A DNA stretch of 53,871 nt from IMG/VR virus record IMGVR_UViG_2718218453_000001, positions 1 to 53,871 of that record; one strand, written 5' to 3'. Of this stretch, positions 12,640 to 53,174 are shown one piece after another. The notes under the pieces are model-generated. The model saw only the letters and a program-made list of their open reading frames with translations, did no database searches and had not been told where the DNA came from. Numbering within the stretch: the first letter of the stretch is position 1; each line of letters opens with the position of its first letter. A program made the translations under genes and the position numbers. Source of the DNA: a virus. Lineage: Duplodnaviria > Heunggongvirae > Uroviricota > Caudoviricetes.

Positions 12640-13038
12640 ATGGATGCACTGCATGTCGCGCTTGAAAATCTGATTAGAGATGATGGTCAAACACTAAATA
12701 GTTATTTTAGTGAAGTTAAAGTTAATTCATTGATTGAAAATACAAATGCAACTTGTCATTTTCATTGCCTTAATCTTGATGGCAATGGACGTCCTCGGGT
12801 AGACGCGTTAATCCAATTCTTGAACGATAAAGTAGTTGATTATGCTATTCCAAGGAAAAAAATCAATGAGGCAGTGCAATATTTTAATGAAACACAATCA
12901 ACAGCGAAAATAACAAAATTAGCAAATCAAGCAAAAAATTATTTACTAGGCTTGCAAATAGTGGCGAAGGCGGTGAATTTATTCTTTTTTTATTTGCAGA
13001 GCAATTCCTTAGATTTCCACAAATTATTTGCAAAATGA
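12640..13038 (+). CDS. Hachiman HamA-like protein, N-terminal part (possibly one gene with next ORF)
   Basis: AT-rich 132-aa ORF; ends in ATGA overlap with the next ORF; a T7 homopolymer at 12985-12991 lies where the two frames are both open. Confidence 0.45.
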   Translation: MDALHVALENLIRDDGQTLNSYFSEVKVNSLIENTNATCHFHCLNLDGNGRPRVDALIQFLNDKVVDYAIPRKKINEAVQYFNETQSTAKITKLANQAKNYLLGLQIVAKAVNLFFFYLQSNSLDFHKLFAK

Positions 13039-13580
13039 GCCTGAAAACGAGTTCTCAAATGCATTACCATGGTGCAGATGGAATACATATAGGCGTAGAT
13101 AAAGATAATAAAAAATTATGTTTATACTGGGGCGAGTCTAAACTCTATTCCAATCTGAGCAAAGGTATTTCTGAGTGTATGGATAGTATAGCTCCATTAC
13201 TTCAAAGTTCTATGGGAATAGAAGGCGCTGAGACACGTGATATGCAGTTGCTGGAGTCGCACTTAAATGTTGATGATATAGAACTAGAACAAGCGTTGAA
13301 AAGATTCTTAGATCCTGATAGCCCGGATTTTAATAAATTGGAATACAGAGGAATATGCTTAGTTGGGTTTGATCTTAAAGATTATCCACAAGGGCCCAGT
13401 TCAATTGATATCAGTGAACTAGTTGCTTTGATTAATACTAAAGTCGGGAAATGGTCAACTAGTGTGCAAGGTGGTATAGTTAATAAAAAACTTGATCGCT
13501 TTGCTATGCATGTTTTTATTCTTCCTTTTCCTTCAGTAAAAGCATTTAGGGCTAGTTTAATTAAAGCATTGGAGAGTTGA
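13035..13580 (+). CDS. Putative PD-(D/E)xK-type nuclease module (HamA-like, C-terminal part)
   Basis: 181 aa; motif GVDKD...LCLYWGESK resembles a D...ExK nuclease core; stop 2 nt before the helicase ATG. Confidence 0.5.
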   Translation: MSLKTSSQMHYHGADGIHIGVDKDNKKLCLYWGESKLYSNLSKGISECMDSIAPLLQSSMGIEGAETRDMQLLESHLNVDDIELEQALKRFLDPDSPDFNKLEYRGICLVGFDLKDYPQGPSSIDISELVALINTKVGKWSTSVQGGIVNKKLDRFAMHVFILPFPSVKAFRASLIKALES

Positions 13581-13581
13581 A

Positions 13582-16164
13582 ATGTCGTTGCGAGATTTAT
13601 CTGGGTGGTTGATTAAGAATCAAGGATTCTTAAGAAAATATCAGGCATTAGTCGCTAACTCGATAAAAGATCAATTTCCAGAGTTAAAATCAGATGTAAT
13701 CCCACAGATTAGTTCTGAGGATGTCGGCTATCTTTTAACATGTGCTAGTTCTTTGGCTTTCTCAAGTGATGAGAAATGCCAAGATGCAGCCTTAAGGATT
13801 GCACAGTATTGCTTATTGAATGAAAAAAGTGAAGCAAGAAAAGATAGTGCTGCATTAATTCTTGATTCATTATCTAATAATCCAGCAATACAACTTGCTG
13901 AAAATAGGGGGTATCTTAACCCTGATTTCGAAGAAAGATTACCCTTAAAGGCTCAGTTAGAACTAACTAAAAGAAAAATTCTATATACAATTGAAATAGA
14001 TGCTGATAAGCATATTTATGCTAATAGGTTTCAATCAGAGTTTTGGGATGCGGTACAAGAAAACTCATGGGTTAGTGTCTCTGCTCCTACCTCTGTAGGA
14101 AAATCATTTATCCTGGAATCTTGGGTGGAGCAGTTTGTAAAAAGAAATAAGAATTGCTTAGTTATTTATATCGTACCAACAAGGGCATTGATTTCAGAAG
14201 TATATTCTGAGTTGCAAAAACGTTTGGATCCTAATTTAACAAATATAGTTAATATTCAGACACTACCATTGAGTAATGTATACCAGAGCGAAAAATCTAA
14301 TGTCTTCATATTTACACAGGAAAGATTAAATTTATTCTACAATCATTTCTCACAAATTCCAAAGATAGACGTCTTAGTTGTTGATGAAGCACACAAGATC
14401 GGTGATGGTGGAAGAGGTGTTATTCTTCAACATGTAATTGAACTGACTTGTCTAAATAACCCTGATTCAAAAGTTATCTTTGCAAGTCCTTTCACCTTAA
14501 ATCCTGAAATATTGCTCAGTGATGCTCCAATATTAAAAAACAAAAGAACTATAAAAAGTGACTATGTTACAGTTAATCAAAATTTAATATGGGTAGAACA
14601 AAAACCACGCAAGACCAAAGATTGGTTGATGTATTATTTTGCAAACGGTGAAAAACGCGAGTTAGGAAACTTTTCTTTAGAAAATGCACCATCTCCTGAA
14701 AGTAAAAGATTGCCTTTTGTAGCTCTTTGTTTAGGTAAGGGGGCTTCTGGTAACGTAGTTTACGTAAATGGAGCCGCTGAAGCAGAATCTACTTCCAAGC
14801 TAATATCTGCAAGTATAGAAAATGAGACTGAGGATGAAGAAATTTTAGCTCTCGTTGAGCTTAGTGAGACAATTATACATAAAAATTTCGCATTAAATCG
14901 CACTCTAAAAAAGAGAGTCGCTTTTCATTATGGCAACATGCCTTTAATAATAAAGGGCGAGATTGAACGATTGTTTAGTAAAGGTAAGATTGATTTTTTA
15001 ATTTGTACCTCAACTTTAGTTGAGGGCGTAAACATGGCTTGTAAAAATATTTTTATAAGAGGCCCTAAAAAGGGTAATTCAACCCCGATGCGAGAAGAGG
15101 ATTTTTGGAATCTTGCTGGCAGAGCTGGTCGTTGGGGAAAAGAATTCCAAGGTAATGTCATCTGCATCGATAGCGACAATGAAAAAATTTGGAATGGAGA
15201 GCCTCCAAAAACCAAAAAAAATATATTTATAACTCGCGCCACGGATGCTATTTCCCATGACATGGATAAGTTGGTTTCCTATATTTTTTCAGAGCATCAT
15301 TTTGGTATGTCTGAGCGGAATCCTAATCTCCAGAGTCTATTTAGTTATTTATGTTCATCATTTTATTTTTATAATGGCTTGGATAATAATCCTTACATGG
15401 AAAAGTACAATATAAAAAATATCGATGTTTTAAATGAAGCAATATTTGATGTTTTTGATTCTTTAACTTTTCCACACGAATTGGTTGTGCGGCATCCTGG
15501 TATAAGCCCGCTTTTAATGCAAAACCTTTGGGATAGATTTTCGCGGGATACAAACAAACCTGTAGAGAGATTACTGCTTTCTGAACCTGGTAGTAATGAT
15601 GCGTTAGATTCATATGTATCCGCATTCTCTAGAATTAGTGATACTCTGAGTAAGAAGCTAGGTTATAATTCAAAAGGAGCTTACGTACAGGCCTTGTTAG
15701 TTTCCAAGTGGATGAAAGGTTATCCCCTAGCAAGATTGATCTCGGATAGAATAAGATATAACAAAAAGAAAAATATTGTTTTCAAAGAAGCGACTTTAAT
15801 ACGAGGGGTTATGAAGGATGTTGAAGAGATCGCTCGCTATCAAGCTCCAAGGCTTTTAGGATGTTATAATGATTTATTAAAAAGCTTTTATCTTTCGATA
15901 GATCGCACAGACTTAGCAAAAGATGTTGAAGATATCGGTGTTTATTTAGAACTGGGTGTAAGTTTAAAAACTCAGATTTCACTAATAGGGCTTGGCTTTT
16001 CAAGAACTGCTGCTGTAATGATTTCAGAGCTTATTCCTAATGATAGTTTAGATGAGGAAGAATGCATTAATTGGATTAAGGACAATAAAGTTGACATGGA
16101 AGAACTGCCACAATTAGTTCAAAACGAAATACATAATATATTTCGTAACTTTTGGGTACAATAG
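13582..16164 (+). CDS. SF2 (Ski2/Lhr-like) helicase, Hachiman HamB-like
   Basis: Walker A APTSVGKS, motif II VVDEAH, motif VI NLAGRAGRWG, C-terminal RecA-like block FHYGNMP...ICTSTLVEGVNMACKNIFI; 860 aa, AT-rich. Confidence 0.8.
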   Translation: MSLRDLSGWLIKNQGFLRKYQALVANSIKDQFPELKSDVIPQISSEDVGYLLTCASSLAFSSDEKCQDAALRIAQYCLLNEKSEARKDSAALILDSLSNNPAIQLAENRGYLNPDFEERLPLKAQLELTKRKILYTIEIDADKHIYANRFQSEFWDAVQENSWVSVSAPTSVGKSFILESWVEQFVKRNKNCLVIYIVPTRALISEVYSELQKRLDPNLTNIVNIQTLPLSNVYQSEKSNVFIFTQERLNLFYNHFSQIPKIDVLVVDEAHKIGDGGRGVILQHVIELTCLNNPDSKVIFASPFTLNPEILLSDAPILKNKRTIKSDYVTVNQNLIWVEQKPRKTKDWLMYYFANGEKRELGNFSLENAPSPESKRLPFVALCLGKGASGNVVYVNGAAEAESTSKLISASIENETEDEEILALVELSETIIHKNFALNRTLKKRVAFHYGNMPLIIKGEIERLFSKGKIDFLICTSTLVEGVNMACKNIFIRGPKKGNSTPMREEDFWNLAGRAGRWGKEFQGNVICIDSDNEKIWNGEPPKTKKNIFITRATDAISHDMDKLVSYIFSEHHFGMSERNPNLQSLFSYLCSSFYFYNGLDNNPYMEKYNIKNIDVLNEAIFDVFDSLTFPHELVVRHPGISPLLMQNLWDRFSRDTNKPVERLLLSEPGSNDALDSYVSAFSRISDTLSKKLGYNSKGAYVQALLVSKWMKGYPLARLISDRIRYNKKKNIVFKEATLIRGVMKDVEEIARYQAPRLLGCYNDLLKSFYLSIDRTDLAKDVEDIGVYLELGVSLKTQISLIGLGFSRTAAVMISELIPNDSLDEEECINWIKDNKVDMEELPQLVQNEIHNIFRNFWVQ

Positions 16165-16256: not shown

Positions 16257-16715
16257 TCAGGCTATTCCAGAATAGGCTTTGCTTACTTCACTATGCCTTG
16301 TGCCGCAATGCCTCAAAATAACAAGGCCATGTTGCAGTAACGCCTCACTACGTTCAGGTTCAAACCATTTCCCGTTAAATTTTCCTCCGTGAAAAAGATT
16401 GTTTCTTACACGGCGGATTAACAAAAAAAGAAATTTTGCTAAATCTTTTTCTTGTGGTAAAGAATCATCCCAAACTAAAGAGTCATCTTCTATGATTTGT
16501 TTTTTGGGTGGGTGTTCTTTAAAGTAGGTGATAGCAGCAATTAGCTCTGGATCAGTTGTGTTATTTATGATTTCAGAAACTTGCTTTGCATACTCATCCC
16601 AGTTCGCTTTAGCATCTTTTATTTTATGATGAAGTCCACATGCCTTAAGGCAATATTCATAACGTGAAAACTCTCTAAAGAATTCATAACATAAATTATC
16701 TAGATTATTCTCCAT
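16257..16715 (-). CDS. HEPN-motif protein (putative RNase-type abortive-infection or toxin component)
   Basis: 152 aa, AT-rich; R-x4-H motif RNNLFH near C-terminus; GGAGAT RBS; downstream of and co-directional with int. Confidence 0.55.
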   Translation of the reverse strand: MENNLDNLCYEFFREFSRYEYCLKACGLHHKIKDAKANWDEYAKQVSEIINNTTDPELIAAITYFKEHPPKKQIIEDDSLVWDDSLPQEKDLAKFLFLLIRRVRNNLFHGGKFNGKWFEPERSEALLQHGLVILRHCGTRHSEVSKAYSGIA

Positions 16716-16744: not shown

Positions 16745-17944
16745 CTAATATTGATTGCGCTCGTACACTTTTTGGCCCCACCAATTCATAAGTCCTATTC
16801 GTTGCTCAAGGTAAGTTGAACGATTATATGCTCTGCGCACTTCATTTTTATCACTATGTGCAAGAGCAGCCTCAATTACATCTGCATTAAAACCCGCTTC
16901 ATTTAATGCGGTGCTGGCAATTGAACGCAATCCATGAGCAACCAATCTACCACCAAATCCAATCCTTTTTAAAGCAGCATTTGCCGTCTGGCTATTCATT
17001 GGTTGCTTTGGGTCATTCCGACTCGGGAAAACATGTTCACGATGGGCACTGATTAGCTTCATCACATCAAGAATCTCTAATGCCTGAGGAGATAGAGGGA
17101 CTATGTGTTCCCGCTTAGCCTTCATTCGTTCAGCTGGGATAGTCCAGAGCTTTGCATCGAGATCGAGCTCAGCCCACCTAGCACCGGAAGCCTCAGAAGG
17201 ACGAACTAGAGTCAGGAGTTGCCACTCAATGAGGCAGCGAGTCGGAACAGACAAATTTGACATGACGAGAGAACGCATCAGCATAGGCAATTCTTCTGGG
17301 CGCAACGTAGGCATATTTTGTTTTTTTGGCTTCTCAAAGGCCATTCCAATGCCTGATGCTGGATTGGCATCAATAAGACCAGTATTTACGGCATAAATCA
17401 TTATCTCGTTAACACGCTGCACCAACCGGCGCACCGTCTCCAGCGCCCCACGAGCTTTGATCGGTTCAAGGGCTTCAACCAGTGTTCGGGCTTTGATTTG
17501 CTGGACAGGGATCTCCCCGATGGTGGGGAATACGTCTTTTTCCAGTGAACGCCATATATCTTTAGCGTAATCATGGGTAACGCTTTTGCTTTTGAGCTGG
17601 AACCAGTTAGCGGCGACCGTCGAAAAAATACTGTCCAGAGCGATTTGCTGCTGTTCCTCTGCAACTTCAGCTTGAATTTGCGGGTCGATTCCGTTGGCTA
17701 ATAGGGCAAGGTAATCTGCTCTTAACCCTCGGGCATCAGCAAGAGAAAGGGCAGGAAAAGCACCAAGTCCCATCATAGTCCGCTGTTTTGTTGCTGGGCG
17801 TTGATAGCGAAAGCGCCAGAGTTTCTTGCCGCTAGTTTTCACTATCAGGAAAAGCCCATCGCCATCATGCAGCGTTAGATCCTTCTCTAACGCTTTCGCG
17901 CGCAGAACTTCGGTGTTGGTCAGGGGGCGTGTTGTCCGTGCCAC
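16745..17944 (-). CDS. int: P4-type tyrosine integrase
   Basis: 399 aa; N-terminal MARTTRPLTNTEVLRAKA...DGDGLFL typical of P4/CP4-57 IntA-like integrases; adjacent to ssrA core copy. First codon is GTG. Confidence 0.9.
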   Translation of the reverse strand: MARTTRPLTNTEVLRAKALEKDLTLHDGDGLFLIVKTSGKKLWRFRYQRPATKQRTMMGLGAFPALSLADARGLRADYLALLANGIDPQIQAEVAEEQQQIALDSIFSTVAANWFQLKSKSVTHDYAKDIWRSLEKDVFPTIGEIPVQQIKARTLVEALEPIKARGALETVRRLVQRVNEIMIYAVNTGLIDANPASGIGMAFEKPKKQNMPTLRPEELPMLMRSLVMSNLSVPTRCLIEWQLLTLVRPSEASGARWAELDLDAKLWTIPAERMKAKREHIVPLSPQALEILDVMKLISAHREHVFPSRNDPKQPMNSQTANAALKRIGFGGRLVAHGLRSIASTALNEAGFNADVIEAALAHSDKNEVRRAYNRSTYLEQRIGLMNWWGQKVYERNQY

Positions 17945-17967
17945 TGTGGCCGCTCCTTCATGAATTG

Positions 17968-18014
17968 GTATACGCTTTTAGGTATACATCCTACCGTATA
18001 CCGAAACGTATACC
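17968..18014. promoter_or_regulatory. Four GTATAC(C) direct repeats (candidate integrase arm-type sites)
   Basis: GTATAC at 17968, 17982, 17996, 18008 with 12-14 bp spacing between int and att. Confidence 0.45.
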
Positions 18015-18060
18015 AATAATCATCGGATTTAGCCGGATGTTCTCGGACAACGACAAACAC

Positions 18061-18095
18061 AAAAAAGCCCGCAGGGCTTGTGCCATGCGGGCTTT
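18061..18095 (-). terminator. Rho-independent terminator following the ssrA 3' copy
   Basis: Minus-strand hairpin agcccgca...tgcgggct followed by TTTTTT. Confidence 0.55.
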
Positions 18096-18128
18096 CTGTA
18101 CTTCACCGGACGTATCCGGATCATTATT

Positions 18129-18173
18129 TGGTGGAGCTGGCGGGAGTTGAACCCGCGTCCGAAATTCCTACAT
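18129..18173 (-). repeat. 45-bp direct repeat of ssrA 3' end (att core)
   Basis: TGGTGGAGCTGGCGGGAGTTGAACCCGCGTCCGAAATTCCTACAT identical to 52812-52856. Confidence 0.9.
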
Positions 18174-18258
18174 ACTATCTTAACTATAACAAAAACAATG
18201 ATTTGCTTTTTAAAACAGTAGGTTGGTATTACTCGGTGTTTGTTCATTTTACTCGTTT

Positions 18259-19212
18259 TTAATGCTCTGCCGCCAAAGTGCCGCCAGTCTTTCTTGAATC
18301 TTCTAATGCTTCATGATCTTTAATTAGTACCTTCAACGAGTTAATTACTTTAATTTGGCATTCCTTAATTAAGTCAGGTAATTTTTCATCAATCTTTGTT
18401 TCTTTTGAATAGAATAAAGTTCTGTTAATGCAATTTTCCAGTCCTCCACTCTCATTCAAATCGGGGAATAGTACAAATCTCCCAAATGCAATGCCATTTT
18501 CCACTTCAACATATACCTTTGGGTGCTCATCTATATAACCGTGGTGAATTATATGATTTCGTAATGATGTTACAGTGTTTATAAAATTGCTATTTTCAAA
18601 TATGGTATCCGTTGTTGTCGAAAAAACTAATTCTTTATAGTTGCCGTATAATTTATTTTTGGATATTAATTTCTTGTATTTAGAGATTGGGAAGTTACTC
18701 TTTAATAATTCAAAGGAGATTTTAGTAACGTAGTCAAACAAACTATTCATTTTTATAAATAGCATGCTTAACAAAGAAAATAGCAAGCTTGTTTTTGGCG
18801 ATTTTGCTACTAAAATCCCTTTAAAATCTTTGTCTGGTGTGGTTATTAACAAATCGCTCCAGAGTATTTCATAAAATTGTTGCGCTATAACAGAGAGTTC
18901 CAAACTACACTCTGTTATATATGAAATTAAGACTTCACAGTCTTGGATGTAAAGAATGTTTGAATCAAAAAATTGCGTTAATTTATTAAAAGTGTTTTTG
19001 CAAACTTGAGATTCCGAGTTATGACCAACATCTCTGATAGTGTAAATGTTAGATTCTTCGGCGATGGAAATCCTTTCTTTTATTTTATCGAAAATTGCAT
19101 ACAGGGCTATACTTAGATTTTCGATTTCATATTGTTCGTTTGTATAGATGATGTTATTCATCAGATCACTTCCTATTTCTATAATGGAGTTAGAGGTTTT
19201 TTGTAACTGCAT
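18259..19212 (-). CDS. Hypothetical protein, partner of RES-like gene (cargo)
   Basis: 317 aa, strongly AT-rich, ATG with AAGAGG RBS, 33 nt downstream of the RES-like gene. Confidence 0.65.
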   Translation of the reverse strand: MQLQKTSNSIIEIGSDLMNNIIYTNEQYEIENLSIALYAIFDKIKERISIAEESNIYTIRDVGHNSESQVCKNTFNKLTQFFDSNILYIQDCEVLISYITECSLELSVIAQQFYEILWSDLLITTPDKDFKGILVAKSPKTSLLFSLLSMLFIKMNSLFDYVTKISFELLKSNFPISKYKKLISKNKLYGNYKELVFSTTTDTIFENSNFINTVTSLRNHIIHHGYIDEHPKVYVEVENGIAFGRFVLFPDLNESGGLENCINRTLFYSKETKIDEKLPDLIKECQIKVINSLKVLIKDHEALEDSRKTGGTLAAEH

Positions 19213-19245
19213 CCTCTTAATACTCTACCGCCAAAACGCCGCCAC

Positions 19246-20457
19246 TTAAGGCTCAAGATAATCATGCTTCATCATTTTATGAATTAACAATTGAACTTTT
19301 TTGAATGAGGTATTATTGTAATATTCCACTAGCGATTCATCAAAATCTTCAATTGTACCTGATGCTGGAGTTGGTCCTCCCATTATGAGTCTATCTTCAT
19401 CCATACCATCGGTCTTGACGTTTAAAGTGCTAAATACTTGCCATGAAACAGGTTTGGTAAATTTAAATATATTTAGTAAGTGTGGGCAGTAATCATAACC
19501 AGAATCCAAAATATTATCCATTTTAGGTGGCATGATTATATTAATACCAATATCACTATCTTTTTGATTGAGAATTTTAGTCGTGCGATAAGCGATACCG
19601 GCTATGCCCTTATTTTCATTGCTGCTGAGCCATTGCATAAGAAGGTTGGGGATTATGTACTCAGGGTTGAAACTAGAGTTTTTATGTTGTTTTGTATAAT
19701 TACAGGCTAACACAAGTGGCCAGGAAATTAAGTTCGAAATGACCCTATTCATAGTTCCTTCAGTATCATTATCTAACAGCCATGCTAAGGTGTTTATGTT
19801 CAATGCTGATCTCAAATTATAACCAAGGTTAAGTATTCTATGTGATGAACCAGACTCTGTGATGAATGAAGATACATATAATTTATCAAAGTCTGGTTTT
19901 TCCATTTCTTGCCAACATACAAAAATAGAGGTTCCTAAATATAAACAAGGAAGGCCTGAGACTGAGTATCTTTGTGCATTCACAAGATAACGTTTAGAAA
20001 AAGGAATATGAAAGATATCACGCCTTTCTTTTATTATTTGATCGCTTTTTCTTACGCGAAATAGAGGTTTTCCAGGATGACAAAACACACTTAATGGAAC
20101 GGACATATTATAGATGTGGTCATTTATATTTGTCTTGGTGATAGCGTGATCAAATGTTAGGTAAGATTCTTTGATTTTACCGTTTAAATATAATCTAAGT
20201 GTTTCTGAAATTTTATCCGAGAGTGTTTTTGTGCTTTTTATTTTTGATTTTATTTCACGAATTACAAGGTTGTGAGGGTTTTTACTGTAAATCTTGTTTA
20301 TGACTTCTAGGTAACATTTAACCCTATTGTTAAAATCTTTAATGATATTATTTCCCGCGAGATAAGGAGCTTGTAATAGTGGTTTGGACTCTATTTCGAA
20401 TAATATTTCATTAAGCATTGCTACATAATCTGTGGTACTAATTTTATTAATTTTCAT
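19246..20457 (-). CDS. RES-domain-like protein (cargo)
   Basis: 403 aa, AT-rich; segment QRYSVSGLPCLYLGTSIFVCWQEM resembles the RES-domain core (Arg ... Glu); starts 4 nt after int stop. Confidence 0.65.
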   Translation of the reverse strand: MKINKISTTDYVAMLNEILFEIESKPLLQAPYLAGNNIIKDFNNRVKCYLEVINKIYSKNPHNLVIREIKSKIKSTKTLSDKISETLRLYLNGKIKESYLTFDHAITKTNINDHIYNMSVPLSVFCHPGKPLFRVRKSDQIIKERRDIFHIPFSKRYLVNAQRYSVSGLPCLYLGTSIFVCWQEMEKPDFDKLYVSSFITESGSSHRILNLGYNLRSALNINTLAWLLDNDTEGTMNRVISNLISWPLVLACNYTKQHKNSSFNPEYIIPNLLMQWLSSNENKGIAGIAYRTTKILNQKDSDIGINIIMPPKMDNILDSGYDYCPHLLNIFKFTKPVSWQVFSTLNVKTDGMDEDRLIMGGPTPASGTIEDFDESLVEYYNNTSFKKVQLLIHKMMKHDYLEP

Positions 20458-20461
20458 TATG

Positions 20462-21481
20462 TTAAATCGCTAGTGATGATAAAGGGTTTTTTGTTACAGC
20501 ATCTTCAAGATGCTCAGGTGAAAAATGAGAATAGACCATAGTCATTTTTATATCTGAATGGCCTAAAATATCTCTTAGTACAAGAATATTCCCTCCATTC
20601 ATCATAAAGTAACTGGCGAATGTATGGCGCAAGACGTGGGTACATTGTCCCTCTGGCAAGTCGATACCAGCTCGTTTAACTGCACGCTCAAAAGCTTTTC
20701 TGCATGGGGTGAATAACTTCCCTCTGTTCTTGGGGAGTTCGTCATACAGATCCTGAGATATCGGCACGGTACGGTTTTTCTTGCCCTTCGTCTTGGTATA
20801 AGTGATGCGGTATTTTGATAACTGATGGCCCTGCAGGTTTTCTGCTTCACTCCACCGCGCACCAGTAGCTAGGCATATTTTTGCAATCATCAGCAGGCTG
20901 GGGCTTTGAGAATCCGCGCAGGCATCCAGCAGGCGTTTAATTTCTTCTGGGGTCAGGAATGCCAGTTCACCCTCTGCGATTTTGAATGTTGGCAGACCGG
21001 CGAGCGGGTTAGGGGCTGACCAGTGGCCCAGTTTTTTCAGAGTCCCAAAAACTGATGATAGGTTGCGTTGTTCGAGGTTTACCGTTCGGGGCTTAACTGG
21101 CGACATAAGCGCGCCATCTTCATTTCGCACTTCACCTTTTAATCGCGCTTCACGGTATTTCGTAAAATCTCCGGCGGTCAGCTCTGAGGCGATAGGGTCG
21201 CCCAGGCCATTACAGATAATTCTAAGTTTCGCCATCAGGCGTTTGGGGTCTGCGAGCGTCTGCCCGTATAGTGAGTGCCATTGCTCTATCACTTCTGACA
21301 GATGCCGCCGATCTTCCTTTTCCCCCAGCCATGGTTTTTTGTTTACTTCATCCATGGTGAAGTTTTCGAATGCTACGGCTTCGCCTTTCGTCGCAAATTG
21401 CTTGCGCACGCGCTTGCCGTCCCGCCCGTTAGGGTAGCACTCACACAACCATTTTCCGTTCGGCTGTTTACTGATGGTCAT
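20462..21481 (-). CDS. int: P2/186-type tyrosine integrase
   Basis: 339 aa; C-terminal HVLRHTFAS...ILGHSDIKMTMVYSH catalytic motifs; position next to the repressor gene. Confidence 0.9.
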   Translation of the reverse strand: MTISKQPNGKWLCECYPNGRDGKRVRKQFATKGEAVAFENFTMDEVNKKPWLGEKEDRRHLSEVIEQWHSLYGQTLADPKRLMAKLRIICNGLGDPIASELTAGDFTKYREARLKGEVRNEDGALMSPVKPRTVNLEQRNLSSVFGTLKKLGHWSAPNPLAGLPTFKIAEGELAFLTPEEIKRLLDACADSQSPSLLMIAKICLATGARWSEAENLQGHQLSKYRITYTKTKGKKNRTVPISQDLYDELPKNRGKLFTPCRKAFERAVKRAGIDLPEGQCTHVLRHTFASYFMMNGGNILVLRDILGHSDIKMTMVYSHFSPEHLEDAVTKNPLSSLAI

Positions 21482-21483
21482 GA

Positions 21484-22116
21484 CTAAATACTCTTGATTA
21501 CTTTAATGGCTCGCCCGACAACTTCCACATCATCAACAGAACACTCAAAGGATGAGTCGTCCTGGTGAACAACAATTCTGTTGCCTGGTATTCGGGCAAT
21601 CTTGACGATGCTTTTCACCCCATCAATATCGACAAGCCAGTAACCATTGCTAACCTGTTTGACAGATATATCCACTACAAAGCAGTCAGTAGACGTTTTT
21701 ATAAACAATGAATTGCCGGGCTCACTGTCCAGTAAGCTGCTATCAAGCAAGACTTCCCCTTCGTTATTCAACTCCCCATTCTTCAATTCGGCTTGCTTAA
21801 TGCTGGGGGCAACGATTTTGGAAAGTGGTCGAAGCGTGACGTTTGACTCGTTTACGGGATTTTTTTCTCGATCTTCTGAAGTGAACATTTCACCCTGGCC
21901 TGTGGCTAGCCATAGCAGCGAAACCCCTGTTTCAAGTGCACACTGGATGACCCACTCAGCAGGAAAGCTATCTCGTAAGTTTCTGTTTGCCATAGTGCTT
22001 TTTGAAATTTTTAAATGGTCAGCTAGTGCTTGTTTGGTGCTGAATCCATATGCCTTAAGCAATCTTTCGATCGCCTCTCTACCTCCCGTATTGGGACCTG
22101 CCTGAATGTTGATCAT
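21484..22116 (-). CDS. cI: 186 CI-like immunity repressor
   Basis: Divergent from the apl-cII operon, adjacent to int; HTH-like N-terminus; start chosen at second ATG with GGAG RBS. Confidence 0.7.
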   Translation of the reverse strand: MINIQAGPNTGGREAIERLLKAYGFSTKQALADHLKISKSTMANRNLRDSFPAEWVIQCALETGVSLLWLATGQGEMFTSEDREKNPVNESNVTLRPLSKIVAPSIKQAELKNGELNNEGEVLLDSSLLDSEPGNSLFIKTSTDCFVVDISVKQVSNGYWLVDIDGVKSIVKIARIPGNRIVVHQDDSSFECSVDDVEVVGRAIKVIKSI

Positions 22117-22235
22117 CAAATACTCCATTGACGACCACTTAAAGTGATCGTAGTATCGCGATTATCCCGCAAGGGGAATCCTGAAAAGTGAGCTAAAACG
22201 AGATAAAACTAACTTAAATCTAAGGATACTGCACT

Positions 22236-28829: not shown

Positions 28830-29897
28830 ATGAAGCGGCTAACTGAAGAACAAATTGAACATTCTTTGATCAGAGCAAGGAAGATTGCGAAGCGGGAGTC
28901 AAGAAAGCTTTCTGGTGGAAGACGGATGCTACAGCCCATGCGGGTATTCTCTCGTGTGAGAATACCCGCGCCTGCGTCATTGGACTTATTTAATACTAAA
29001 AATTACAAACTATTTATAGAGTTTATCACTTTAATCAGAGATTACATCAATGATGGTGAGAAAATTTTAATAGATTTCAGAAATACAAAATCTCTGAAAG
29101 CATGTGCAGTAATCGTATTGTATGCACATATTGACTTTTTACAAAGGCAAACAAAAGATAAAAATATAATTTCTATTACTACGTGCGGTTCACCCAGGGC
29201 AAATAACTGGTTTAAAATATGTGGTATTTGGGGGATTACAGGGTTTCAGCGTATAGCTGCAGATAAGCTTAATTCAATGGAAATTGTTTCCGCTGTTGCA
29301 GGCAAAACTAGAGATGATCATGAAAGTGCCGAAGCAAGACAAAAAATTAAAAATATTCTACGTTATATAAAAGATACCATTTATGAAGGTAAGATTTCCG
29401 CTTCGGATGGTGTGAAATTATATGCAGCATTAACTGAATCTATTAGCAATGTTGGTCTACATGCGTATTCAAATGAAGAACAGTTCTCTGAATTTATTGA
29501 GGACATTGGTAAAAGATGGTGGATATTGGCACACAAAGTCGAAGAACAACTATTTTTGATGGTGTATGATATGGGAGAAGGTATCCCAGTTACATTGGTT
29601 AAAAAAGACTTTTTCACATTTATCGCTCAGATATTTAATCCTAAGACGGATTCTGATAAAATATTCGCGGCTGTACAGTATGGTGAGACAAGAATGAATA
29701 GTCAGAAGCATGGTAAAGGATTACCTGATATGAAAAGGTATGTTGTAGATAACCCTGAGGGGCAGTTACATATTTTTAGTGGAATGGGACGATATTCTTA
29801 TGATGCTGAAAATAATGTTGAAGATAAATTTGATCTGCCATACTCCATAGGTGGAACCCTTATTCAATGGAATGTAAGTTTGAGAGGTGCTGAATGA
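28830..29897 (+). CDS. RsbW/SpoIIAB-like GHKL kinase/ATPase domain protein (cargo gene 1)
   Basis: AT-rich; GHKL motifs: N-box ESISNVGLHAY, G1 VYDMGEGIP, G2 GKGLPD; start at ATG 28830 with GAGGAAAGG RBS; inverted repeat TAGTTGTTG / CAACAACTA just upstream. Confidence 0.7.
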   Translation: MKRLTEEQIEHSLIRARKIAKRESRKLSGGRRMLQPMRVFSRVRIPAPASLDLFNTKNYKLFIEFITLIRDYINDGEKILIDFRNTKSLKACAVIVLYAHIDFLQRQTKDKNIISITTCGSPRANNWFKICGIWGITGFQRIAADKLNSMEIVSAVAGKTRDDHESAEARQKIKNILRYIKDTIYEGKISASDGVKLYAALTESISNVGLHAYSNEEQFSEFIEDIGKRWWILAHKVEEQLFLMVYDMGEGIPVTLVKKDFFTFIAQIFNPKTDSDKIFAAVQYGETRMNSQKHGKGLPDMKRYVVDNPEGQLHIFSGMGRYSYDAENNVEDKFDLPYSIGGTLIQWNVSLRGAE

Positions 29898-30214
29898 AAA
29901 TCAAAGAGATACATGTTGCTGAAGATTTTTCAGATGTTCCCTATGGCCGCTATGATGAGGATGGTCCTGATAATGGACAACGTTTCCGTGAAAAGTATCT
30001 TTTGAAAGCCATCCAAGATTATGATGAGGTGCACGTGTACCTTGATGGTGCTATGGGTTATGGTTCTTCATTCTTGGAAGAGGCGTTTGGTGGACTTTAT
30101 AGAACAAATAATATAGATAAAGCTATAATTAGGAAAAAATTAAAAATATTTACTGATTTGGATTTCCTCAAGGATAGTATATGGGGATATATTTCTGATG
30201 CTAAAAAGGAGTGA
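29894..30214 (+). CDS. STAS-like (anti-sigma-antagonist fold) small protein (cargo gene 2)
   Basis: 106 aa, ATGA overlap with gene 1; VHVYLDGAMGYGSSFLEEAFGGL resembles STAS/DUF4325-like sequences. Confidence 0.6.
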   Translation: MKIKEIHVAEDFSDVPYGRYDEDGPDNGQRFREKYLLKAIQDYDEVHVYLDGAMGYGSSFLEEAFGGLYRTNNIDKAIIRKKLKIFTDLDFLKDSIWGYISDAKKE

Positions 30215-30219
30215 TGTTC

Positions 30220-30708
30220 ATGGATGAACTTCCGGTTTATCTGCGGTTATTACAATACCTTGCTAGTTCAGGTGTGATTGCAATTCTAACAGCCTTGATT
30301 GGTTGGGTTTTTGTATATAGAAACTCCCGTGCGTTGCAAAAGAGGAGTGAAACATGGTCAATTGTAAAAAATGTTTCAGATAATTTAAAGGAAATTGAAT
30401 CTGCATCAAGAAAGTTTTGGATACCGGGAGATTCAAAAGAAATTGATGCAATGTCATTTCAAAATGAGATAACAGCACTTCTTGCGGAGACCGAGCGGTG
30501 GTTGAATCATCTAAAACAACGCATTAATATCGAAGGTGACTATAAACCTTTGATTGCTGATTTATTCAAAGATGCTACATCTAATATTGAAAAAGCACAG
30601 GAGTATGATAAAAGTCAAAGGACAAGAATTAGTGTATTAGTGTCAAAAAGGGCGAAAATAATTAAATCTCTAATTGATGAGTCTTATCAGAAAAAATTCT
30701 TAAAGTGA
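30220..30708 (+). CDS. Small membrane protein (cargo gene 3)
   Basis: N-terminal hydrophobic helix LASSGVIAILTALIGWVFVY then charged helical region; AAAGGAG RBS 8 nt upstream; overlaps gene 2 stop. Confidence 0.6.
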   Translation: MDELPVYLRLLQYLASSGVIAILTALIGWVFVYRNSRALQKRSETWSIVKNVSDNLKEIESASRKFWIPGDSKEIDAMSFQNEITALLAETERWLNHLKQRINIEGDYKPLIADLFKDATSNIEKAQEYDKSQRTRISVLVSKRAKIIKSLIDESYQKKFLK

Positions 30709-39650: not shown

Positions 39651-40451
39651 ATGTCTGAAAAGTTAATTTTTTTATCCCATATAACAGAAGAAAAAGAATT
39701 AGCGAAAATAATCAAAGATGCAATTGAAGACGAGTTTTCTGGATTCGTTGAAGTGTTTGTATCGTCAGATGGGAATACAATTAAAGCCGGTCAAAATTTC
39801 TTAAATGTTATTGAAAATGGGTTAGTAAATTGTATTGCTGCTATTTATCTGATAAGCCCAGAATCTGTCCAGAGAAGCTGGATTAGTTTTGAGTTAGGGG
39901 CTGTATGGGTTAGAAATGCTATCAGCCGGCAAAACGGCGGGCCAGAAATCCCTGCTATTCCTTTTTGCCACTCGGATATGACGTTTAGAGACTTGCCCCA
40001 ACCTATCTGTAATCTAAATGGTATTGAAGCAAACCGATCTCATTCCTTGGAGTTTGCATTTAAGTCGATTCAGACCGCTGTTGGAGGAAAAGGACGATTG
40101 AGAACTGATTTTGATGTTCTTGCCGAGAAAGTTAACATTTTTGAGAGAGATTATACAGTCTTCAAAAGTATAGGCGAAATTCTCGGTTTAATTGGTGTAG
40201 ATAGCCAGCGTCGCGCACAATTAGTTCAGCTTGTTAATAGTTCAGCAGAGAATGAAGTTATAATTAAAACTGATACTAGGCAGGATTCAGCAGATATAAT
40301 ATTTAAATTAGTTGATACTAAGTTAAGTCATTTCGCTAAATATAAAGTAACATCTTCTGGTTTAGGTATGGGACTTCAAGGCGCTTCTCCTTTCTGTGAA
40401 TTTGAATTGAGAATGGATCGGAAAATACTCAGTGATTACTTGGCTCGATAG
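39651..40451 (+). CDS. TIR-domain-like protein (cargo in S-V slot)
   Basis: AT-rich 266 aa; N-terminal IFLSHITEEKELAKIIKDAIED...VEVFVSS...ISPESVQRSWISFELG resembles TIR motifs including a conserved Glu; AGGAGGG RBS. Confidence 0.65.
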   Translation: MSEKLIFLSHITEEKELAKIIKDAIEDEFSGFVEVFVSSDGNTIKAGQNFLNVIENGLVNCIAAIYLISPESVQRSWISFELGAVWVRNAISRQNGGPEIPAIPFCHSDMTFRDLPQPICNLNGIEANRSHSLEFAFKSIQTAVGGKGRLRTDFDVLAEKVNIFERDYTVFKSIGEILGLIGVDSQRRAQLVQLVNSSAENEVIIKTDTRQDSADIIFKLVDTKLSHFAKYKVTSSGLGMGLQGASPFCEFELRMDRKILSDYLAR

Positions 40452-52714: not shown

Positions 52715-52753
52715 ATGGCGACAGGCAAGATGGACGCAATAGTCTGTCGCCAT
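52715..52753. promoter_or_regulatory. Palindromic operator-like element upstream of WYL/BRCT gene
   Basis: Perfect 10-bp inverted repeat ATGGCGACAG / CTGTCGCCAT with 19-bp spacer, 27-65 nt upstream of the start codon. Confidence 0.4.
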
Positions 52754-52764
52754 TTTGCCGCCAC

Positions 52765-52803
52765 TACCAAAGAAAAAGGGGCTACGCTTTCACGTAACCC
52801 CTT
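52765..52803 (-). terminator. Rho-independent terminator of ssrA (phage-supplied)
   Basis: Minus-strand hairpin AAGGGG...CCCCTT followed by TTTTTCTTT; the same element is copied at 1483-1521. Confidence 0.7.
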
Positions 52804-52811
52804 GATTTATT

Positions 52812-53174
52812 TGGTGGAGCTGGCGGGAGTTGAACCCGCGTCCGAAATTCCTACATCCTCGGTACTACATGCTTAGTCAGTCTTTACATTCGCTTGCCAG
52901 CTGCGGACGGACACGCCACTAACAAACTAGCCTGATTAAGTTTTAACGCTTCAACCCCAGGCAGGGCTTCCACGCGATCTCTTTTGGGTTTGACCTCTCT
53001 TGATCCCCGTCCTAAGAGCGGAGGCTAGGGAGAGAGGGCTCTAAGCAGGTTATTAAGCTGCTAAAGCGTAGTTTTCGTCGTTTGCGACTATTTTTTGCGG
53101 CTTTTTACGAGGCCAACCGCCCCTCGGCATGCACCTTGGGTTTCGCAAATCCCGTCGAATCCAGAATCAGCCCC
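52812..53174 (-). ncRNA. ssrA: tmRNA (SsrA)
   Basis: Reverse complement gives GGGGCTGATTCTGGATTCGACGGG at the 5' end and ...GGACGCGGGTTCAACTCCCGCCAGCTCCACCA at the 3' end, matching the enterobacterial tmRNA sequence as recalled; 363 nt. Confidence 0.95.

Follow-up and report, generated by a model that had tools for sequence, protein, structure and literature searches.

RES-domain proteins are known from type II toxin-antitoxin (TA) systems such as RES-Xre, MbcT-MbcA, ParT-ParS and NatT-NatR, and from aRES, a group of stand-alone proteins of defense islands which protect Escherichia coli, convert nicotinamide adenine dinucleotide (NAD+) into nicotinamide and ADPR-1P (ADPR, ADP-ribose) and cause growth arrest (Osterman et al., Sorek laboratory, bioRxiv 2026, doi 10.64898/2026.01.28.702374). 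The detection rule for aRES requires the N-terminal domain PF18870 (HEPN_RES_NTD1) (doi 10.64898/2026.01.28.702374). In published work on antiviral hotspots of P2 and P4 (Rousset et al., 2022, PMC9122126; Vassallo et al., 2022, doi 10.1101/2022.05.12.491691), those of P2-type phages lie between replication gene A and portal gene Q (tin/old) and at Z/fun, and Vibrio K139-like phages are the only ones with a reported hotspot at cI-int. This study concerns two adjacent genes, here called gene 1 and gene 2, which lie between the integrase gene (int) and the attachment (att) core of a Fels-2/186-like prophage of E. coli. Both are contained in a stretch of viral DNA of 53,871 nucleotides (nt), IMG/VR record IMGVR_UViG_2718218453_000001, positions 1 to 53,871, referred to as the window. 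What is new is a distinct family of stand-alone RES proteins, to which gene 1 belongs, and a cargo slot in Fels-2/186-like phages that had not been described. By analogy with aRES we favor, with somewhat more confidence than doubt, the reading that gene 1 encodes an infection-triggered destroyer of NAD+, one protein that restrains itself and whose gene is expressed with the lysogenic operon.

Gene 1 (19246-20457, minus strand) encodes a protein of 403 amino acids (aa) in which a RES core (~125-345) is preceded by an N-terminal helical domain (residues ~1-120) and followed by a helical C-terminal part. An AlphaFold2 model built on 42 homologues (predicted local distance difference test, pLDDT, 85.5; predicted template modeling score, pTM, 0.87) was compared with PDB structures using Foldseek, and the top and only significant match was MbcT (E 4.7e-3). 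In profile-profile alignments (hhalign) MbcT residues 54-74 fall onto residues 169-189 of gene 1, with MbcT Y58 and E69 at Y173 and E184. The E. coli UC5 aRES protein is aligned with a probability of 87.9% (E 3e-6, 169 columns; aRES 176-358 with gene 1 128-315), placing aRES R182, R184 and R215 opposite R134, R136 and R163. These three aRES arginines are listed as alanine mutants, and active-site mutations were reported to abolish defense (doi 10.64898/2026.01.28.702374). The candidate catalytic residues of gene 1 are R134, R136, R163, Y173, E184, T292 and N306; over 58 diverse members of the family (23-55% identity) there is no variation at R136, R163, Y173 and E184 and almost none at R134 and N306. 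Y173, E184 and N306 occupy the RES Y, E and N positions, and the Y and N positions are typical of RES according to Aravind's group (PMC9503650). The segment QRYSVSGLPCLYLGTSIFVCWQEM is the most conserved stretch of the protein. The only family matched recurrently by relatives of gene 1 is the Pfam RES family PF08808, always below threshold (25 of 42 relatives at E<=10, 20 of 58 at E<=0.01, best E 3.3e-5). The original prediction, made from the letters of the DNA, had noted a RES-like core embedded in a larger protein; the fold match to MbcT, the aRES alignment and the conserved arginines bear this out. Structure comparison, which was proposed as a check and could have returned no RES/ADP-ribosyltransferase (ART)-like fold, returned such a fold, and residues at the R/R, Y, E, S and N positions are conserved; the hidden Markov model (HMM) search proposed with it gave matches below threshold for relatives and none for gene 1 itself. 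Taken together, a predicted RES/ART-type catalytic domain within a larger protein is supported.

The closest functionally tested relative of this catalytic domain is aRES, and the two share several features. Both are stand-alone RES proteins within a range of 300-600 aa, have no operon partner and occur in defense contexts; their catalytic halves are homologous and gene 1 keeps all three arginines that were mutated in aRES, so that the same mode of action, infection-triggered NAD+ loss with growth arrest, would be expected by analogy. They differ at the N-terminus, which in aRES is the Cys-rich PF18870 domain and in gene 1 a helical domain that does not align with it, since hhalign pairs the RES halves only. 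PF18870 did not match gene 1 at E 10, while it matched aRES UC5 at E 3.6e-4 (the authors of aRES used HHsearch). Unlike aRES, gene 1 goes unrecognized by Pfam RES. All 12 of the 12 IMG taxa with a member of the gene 1 family next to int are missing from the published aRES gene list, which was drawn from a 2017 database that may not hold these genomes. The distance from the RES-Xre, MbcT-MbcA, ParT-ParS and NatT-NatR modules is of another kind: gene 1 has no adjacent helix-turn-helix (HTH)/DUF2384 antitoxin gene, its product is twice as long as those toxins and carries additional N- and C-terminal domains, and the RES-like gene is solitary in every context examined.

The window covers the E. 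coli ssrA locus, with the transfer-messenger RNA (tmRNA) gene at 52812-53174 (minus strand; ARAGORN), and the region is 100% identical in E. coli D3 (NZ_CP010140) and 6 further complete genomes. A direct repeat of 53 nt (98% identical) corresponding to the ssrA 3' end is found at 18124-18176, the int-proximal att core (minus strand), and at 52807-52859 (minus strand), within the intact ssrA gene; it brackets a prophage which is therefore ~34.7 kb long and has the two cargo genes at its int end. The prophage encodes 186-type CI, CII and Fil and a P2-type structural module. Read along the minus strand, ssrA comes first, followed by the prophage with cI and int toward its end, the 403-aa open reading frame (ORF) and the 317-aa ORF, then the att core, a P4-like satellite integrase (16745-17944, beyond the att core) and Hachiman genes. 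The 186-type repressor gene cI (21484-22128, minus strand) heads the co-oriented cI-int-cargo string, and the tyrosine integrase (20462-21481, minus strand) is 94.7% identical to Fels-2 Int. As had been described from the DNA alone, two AT-rich minus-strand ORFs of 403 and 317 aa (19246-20457 and 18259-19212) fill the space between int and att, the first with its ATG at 20457, 4 nt past the int stop codon (20462-20464). GC content is 0.28-0.35 over 18200-20400, compared with 0.46-0.52 in int and cI. The start given originally for the region, 18174, has to be revised, as it takes in the att core and the P arm besides the cargo.

This space is a cargo slot with sharp boundaries. Toward att, an alignment of loci from E. 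coli, Salmonella, Klebsiella and Enterobacter with three unrelated cargos becomes conserved exactly at the tandem repeat TGGCGGCA-CTT-TGGCGGCA (18268-18286, minus strand) and remains so to the core, which in related loci lies ~132 nt downstream of the repeat. This tandem repeat marks the start of the P arm and the right boundary of the slot, and because a further copy, TGGCGGCAAAATGGCGACA, is present on the P' arm at the other prophage end (52745-52763, minus strand), both are taken as putative arm-type binding sites of Int. Toward int, the boundary falls inside the gene, whose last ~9 codons vary with the cargo. Unrelated cargo proteins share a G-x-LAAE(H) tail (L034, L077, P0044, P0050, P0070 and 18259-18285 of the window) because their ORFs run into the conserved arm repeat, and this arm-encoded tail could mislead homology searches. 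A scan between int and the att end detected no terminator-like site and no promoter-like excess over shuffled sequences, which speaks neither for nor against promoters of the genes' own; given the 4-nt gap and the lack of a terminator-like site, co-transcription of the cargo with int is plausible.

The contents of the slot were surveyed in the 80 viral contigs whose int was closest (>=94% identity), by locating in each the int stop, the att core and, between them, the tandem repeat TGGCGRCA-n3-TGGCGRCA. Of these loci 60 had a resolvable slot, and as the counts were not de-replicated the proportions are indicative only. It is empty in 18 of 60, the arm repeat starting 4 nt past the int stop, which agrees with the earlier statement that attP normally abuts int. 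In 21 loci a RES-like gene takes up the whole slot by itself, over 1193-1276 nt in 20 of them (the remaining locus, L091, gave only a 335-aa ORF). A RES-like gene plus a 317-aa ORF, the arrangement of the window, was found once. The other loci hold a 352-aa membrane-protein family (10/60), a 477-509-aa family (3/60), a 216-aa protein (3/60), a 291-aa protein (2/60) or a 584-aa protein (2/60), the last being the known anti-phage dCTP deaminase (PADLOC E 5e-141). Conserved flanks, unrelated alternative cargos and an empty state were thus all observed, with 7 cargo configurations besides the empty one. The 352-aa cargo belongs to the same family as that of E. coli BE2-5 and is unrelated to RES; it was considered as a divergent RES protein and rejected (hhalign probability 0.4%). 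A 516-aa hypothetical protein of Klebsiella phage ST437-OXA245phi4.1 (L174, 5023-6573) sits in the same slot, overlapping the int stop by 4 nt, and judged by its size probably belongs to the 477-509-aa family of L034, L048 and L054.

The slot resembles the P2 and P4 hotspots in being a small locus of high turnover between conserved phage anchors, which holds single- or few-gene anti-phage systems and whose conserved flanks would permit exchange. It differs from the P2 hotspots in position, since it stretches from the 3' end of int to the arm repeat of attP and is found neither between A and Q nor at Z/fun. No description of an int-attP slot or int-att hotspot was found in the literature on P2-like phages. 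Another explanation is that the cargo genes have no present function. Low GC, unknown function and the patchy occurrence of the exact pair, in 11 of 5426 genomes, would suit functionless passengers, decaying morons or catalytically inert scaffolds, but the frames are intact over thousands of clusters, residues of catalytic type are invariant over 25-55% identity and gene 2 keeps long invariant blocks at 49-53% identity across genera. Moreover, an empty slot exists, so that genes kept in it are presumably under selection. We regard inert cargo as very improbable.

Anatomy and distribution likewise address the original proposal that the two genes form a toxin/immunity or abortive-infection module. 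A defense or abortive role remains the best reading of the locus; the pairing does not hold up. The two genes lie next to each other, share their orientation and a similar AT richness and occur together in 11 complete E. coli genomes, and classical RES toxins need a partner, which would suit a type II TA-like or two-component abortive-infection (Abi) system whose 317-aa protein neutralizes or regulates the RES toxin. Against this, locus L015 carries, beside a 99%-identical int, a lone RES-like gene 95% identical to gene 1, and none of the 21 lone RES-like loci has space for a second ORF. Lone copies are very abundant in Salmonella: the homologue P0083, found in 6108 index blocks of an assembly collection, stands alone directly after the same type of int, as does the Klebsiella homologue P0014, and in both cases the next feature is the att core followed by a different island. 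Conversely, homologues of gene 2 in Klebsiella (P0124) and Enterobacter (P0122) occupy the same post-int position alone, with no RES gene. The families are also of very different size, 4 clusters for gene 2 against 315 to 2732 for the RES-like family, and recurrence of the pair next to P2-like integrases, which was suggested as a check, was seen in 1 of the 60 slots.

Relics of cassette boundaries separate the two genes. A degenerate arm repeat, TGGCGGCGTTTTGGCGGTA (19226-19244, minus strand), directly follows the stop of gene 1, and a 39-nt relic of an int 3' end (19178-19216, minus strand), the left boundary of the second cassette, reads EDAVTKNL followed by a stop, or EDAVTKNPLTPL followed by a stop when one C is restored. 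Its local alignment with the int 3' end of L083 scores 47, where shuffled sequences gave a mean of 16.7 (standard deviation 3.0, maximum 29). The presence of both relics between genes 1 and 2 implies that each gene came as its own int-3'-to-arm cassette and that the two were then stacked. Apart from the arm-encoded tail the two proteins have no homology; an N-terminal sensor domain common to both (cf. 'HEPN/RES NTD') was considered and rejected. Distribution and junction anatomy, both read from sequence, largely refute the toxin/immunity pairing, which we consider the least probable of the explanations weighed here.

Gene 2 (18259-19161, minus strand) matches phrog_31026. The 317-aa ORF exists as originally described, with its longest form running to 19212; the gene most likely starts at 19161 and encodes 300 aa, as this is the RefSeq start, homologues align from there and an AGGAAG lies 7 nt upstream. 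The 17 additional N-terminal codons are the relic of the int 3' end, and the final 9 codons run through the Int arm repeat. The motif SLR[ND]HIIHHGYIDE (R201-x4-H206) is present, and SLR[ND]HIIHHG is invariant in 4 of 4 sequences. Homologous clusters, 4 for gene 2 and many more for gene 1, show that both ORFs are real genes. Gene 2 is an independent, rare single-gene cargo and, judged by the motif, possibly a HEPN-like nuclease. It differs from the known HEPN abortive-infection and toxin RNases in that no HEPN/Abi profile of Pfam, NCBIfam or PADLOC matched it and in that the structure matches of its model, a moderate one, are helical-bundle matches that are not specific.

The gene 1 family extends well beyond this slot. 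Its members are stand-alone RES-domain proteins of ~360-420 aa with an N-terminal helical domain of their own; a word-indexed search gave 315 clusters and an exhaustive HMM search 2732 clusters at 50% identity, that is, at least 2700 clusters over Proteobacteria, Bacteroidota, Bacillota and Planctomycetota. In a scan of one genome per species, 162 relatives were found in Enterobacterales, Aeromonas, Marinomonas, many Bacteroidota, Paenibacillus, Bacillus, Planctomycetota and Clostridia. Phage-borne members, with 32-42% identity, are YopC of SPbeta, CARTA_33 of Cartapus ('putative RES protein') and the int-adjacent ORFs of RE2010 and SopEPhi (phrog_7835); those of P2-like phages sit in the same int-adjacent slot, whereas SPbeta is an unrelated phage and the family is therefore not bound to this location. 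Some of these phage proteins already carry the annotation 'RES domain-containing' or 'putative RES protein', and no published function was found in the literature for YopC or the other phage members. At 80 family loci from diverse species no neighbor family recurred, the largest neighbor cluster being integrases (9/80). Ten large neighbors of distant members were scanned; five are of restriction-modification (R-M) or nuclease type (type I/III helicase subunits, PLD-ResIII-DUF3427, DUF2357-PDDEXK_7 and an Eco57I/MmeI-type methylase), and a sixth is a STAND-like TPR ATPase.

The presence of the gene in viable phages (RE2010, SopEPhi and Cartapus) and its location in the lysogenic operon would be compatible with another use, in which an active RES/ART-type enzyme serves the phage and not the defense of the host. 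Its target for ADP-ribosylation may then lie in the host or in a satellite, much as Prs is modified by ParT, or it may manipulate the host in lysogeny or induction by destroying NAD-derived immune signals or NAD+ itself, and the frequent tandem arrangement of these prophages with P4-like satellites would fit such a role. However, distant members lie in non-phage, R-M-rich neighborhoods, aRES is a defense NADase, a dCTP deaminase defense gene uses the same slot, and 30% of relatives have nothing in the slot, which makes the gene dispensable for the phage. A phage-serving enzyme is for these reasons judged unlikely.

The defensive reading of gene 1 can be put together as follows. The region is the cargo slot of a Fels-2/186-like prophage at ssrA, between the int 3' end and the attP arm-type repeats, and contains two independent single-gene cassettes, stacked. 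Gene 1 would be transcribed with cI and int in the lysogen, its product being held inactive by its own non-catalytic domains. Upon infection by another phage it would cleave NAD+, probably by phosphorolysis to nicotinamide and ADPR-1''-phosphate as in MbcT and aRES, and the loss of NAD+ would arrest growth and abort the infection. Gene 2, unrelated and possibly a HEPN-type RNase, would work alone. Recombination within the arm repeats and the conserved 3' end of int may let related phages swap cassettes, and the two relic boundaries between the genes of the window would stem from an unequal event of this kind.

Of this proposal, the layout of the locus, the RES fold, the conserved residues of catalytic type, the separate occurrence of the two genes, the variation of the slot and the known defense gene in it are observed; expression, trigger, NADase chemistry, defense phenotype and recombination route are inferred. 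Several observations weigh against it. Gene 1 did not match PF08808 even at E 10, far short of the curated threshold, and the RES Ser position is Thr292 in gene 1, being Ser in most relatives. Neither gene matched Pfam, NCBIfam or PADLOC, PHROGs returned unknown-function families only, and the gene 1 family is not represented in PADLOC v2. Searches of PDB chains with sequence profiles of the family (full-length A1 and A2, RES-only A3) gave helical-bundle noise or nothing and no RES chain, and the RES link therefore rests on the fold search and the profile-profile alignments. The N-terminal domain has no detectable relative, PF18870 included. As to the surroundings, most cargo families of the slot are of unknown function, so that location in a hotspot is guilt by association only, and the gene 2 model (pLDDT 72, from 4 sequences) gave HEPN matches mixed with generic helical bundles.

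Other parts of the window carry defense-type genes as well. In the window (16745-18176) and in L002, L004, L006 and L008 (Salmonella, Klebsiella) a Fels-2/186-like prophage and a P4-like satellite integrase are arranged in tandem at one ssrA att core, and each satellite has a different defense-type cargo (SIR2-like plus DUF87, NACHT, methylase, Hachiman). The Hachiman system of the window (12640-16164) is located in the P4-like satellite hotspot; HamB (13582-16164) is intact (PADLOC E=0), while HamA is divided between two ORFs (12640-13038 and 13035-13580), of which the annotated piece, 227 aa long, covers only positions 94-312 of the 314-position HamA profile. From the two ORFs and the partial profile match it follows that hamA probably carries a frameshift and that the system may be inactive. 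A 152-aa ORF (16257-16715, minus strand) that lies between HamB and the P4-like integrase contains RRVRNNLFHGG, an R-x4-H-type motif reminiscent of HEPN, and had no match in Pfam, NCBIfam or PADLOC. At 28830-30708, the cos-adjacent hotspot known from P2 (gene A/DinI to portal Q) holds three genes, with products of 355 aa, 106 aa (STAS-like, RefSeq) and 162 aa. They had no match in PADLOC and are a candidate uncharacterized three-gene system. Another moron site of the same phage, between a virion-morphogenesis gene and baseplate gene V, encodes a 266-aa TIR-domain protein (39651-40451) with weak PADLOC matches to the TIR regions of PDC-S66 and SpbK. Lastly, a 67-nt repeat (97% identical) at 1469-1535 and 52750-52816 includes the P'-arm-type repeat TGGCGGCAAAATGGCGACA, and therefore the far left edge of the composite ssrA island holds a copy of a Fels-2/186-like P' arm, which may be the scar of an older integration or a sequence that this phage family uses to replace the ssrA terminator.

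We tentatively propose, at slightly less than even chances, that the gene 1 family is a second, so far unrecognized, stand-alone anti-phage RES clade and that the int-attP slot is a third P2-family defense hotspot, not described before. In that case the helical sensor domain of gene 1 may recognize a trigger unlike that of aRES, and the protein may be insensitive to known aRES inhibitors. The cassettes of the slot may be shuffled by means of the coding end of int and the binding sites of its product, and the 352-aa membrane, 477-509-aa, 291-aa, 216-aa and 300-aa HEPN-like proteins may be candidate single-gene defense systems. The sharp boundaries and the empty reference state of the slot allow a simple anchor-based harvest of further single-gene candidates, and its anatomy indicates that the integrase 3' end and arm sites can serve as recombination handles for cargo exchange. 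The adjacency of the two genes, easily taken for a TA pair, is a tempting mis-annotation that is corrected here. If gene 1 defends as predicted here, NAD+-depleting RES immunity reaches beyond aRES to a large, phage-borne family that is invisible to Pfam and very common in prophages of Salmonella and Klebsiella, which would bear on the host range of phages used in therapy and on how widespread NAD+ depletion is estimated to be among bacteria.

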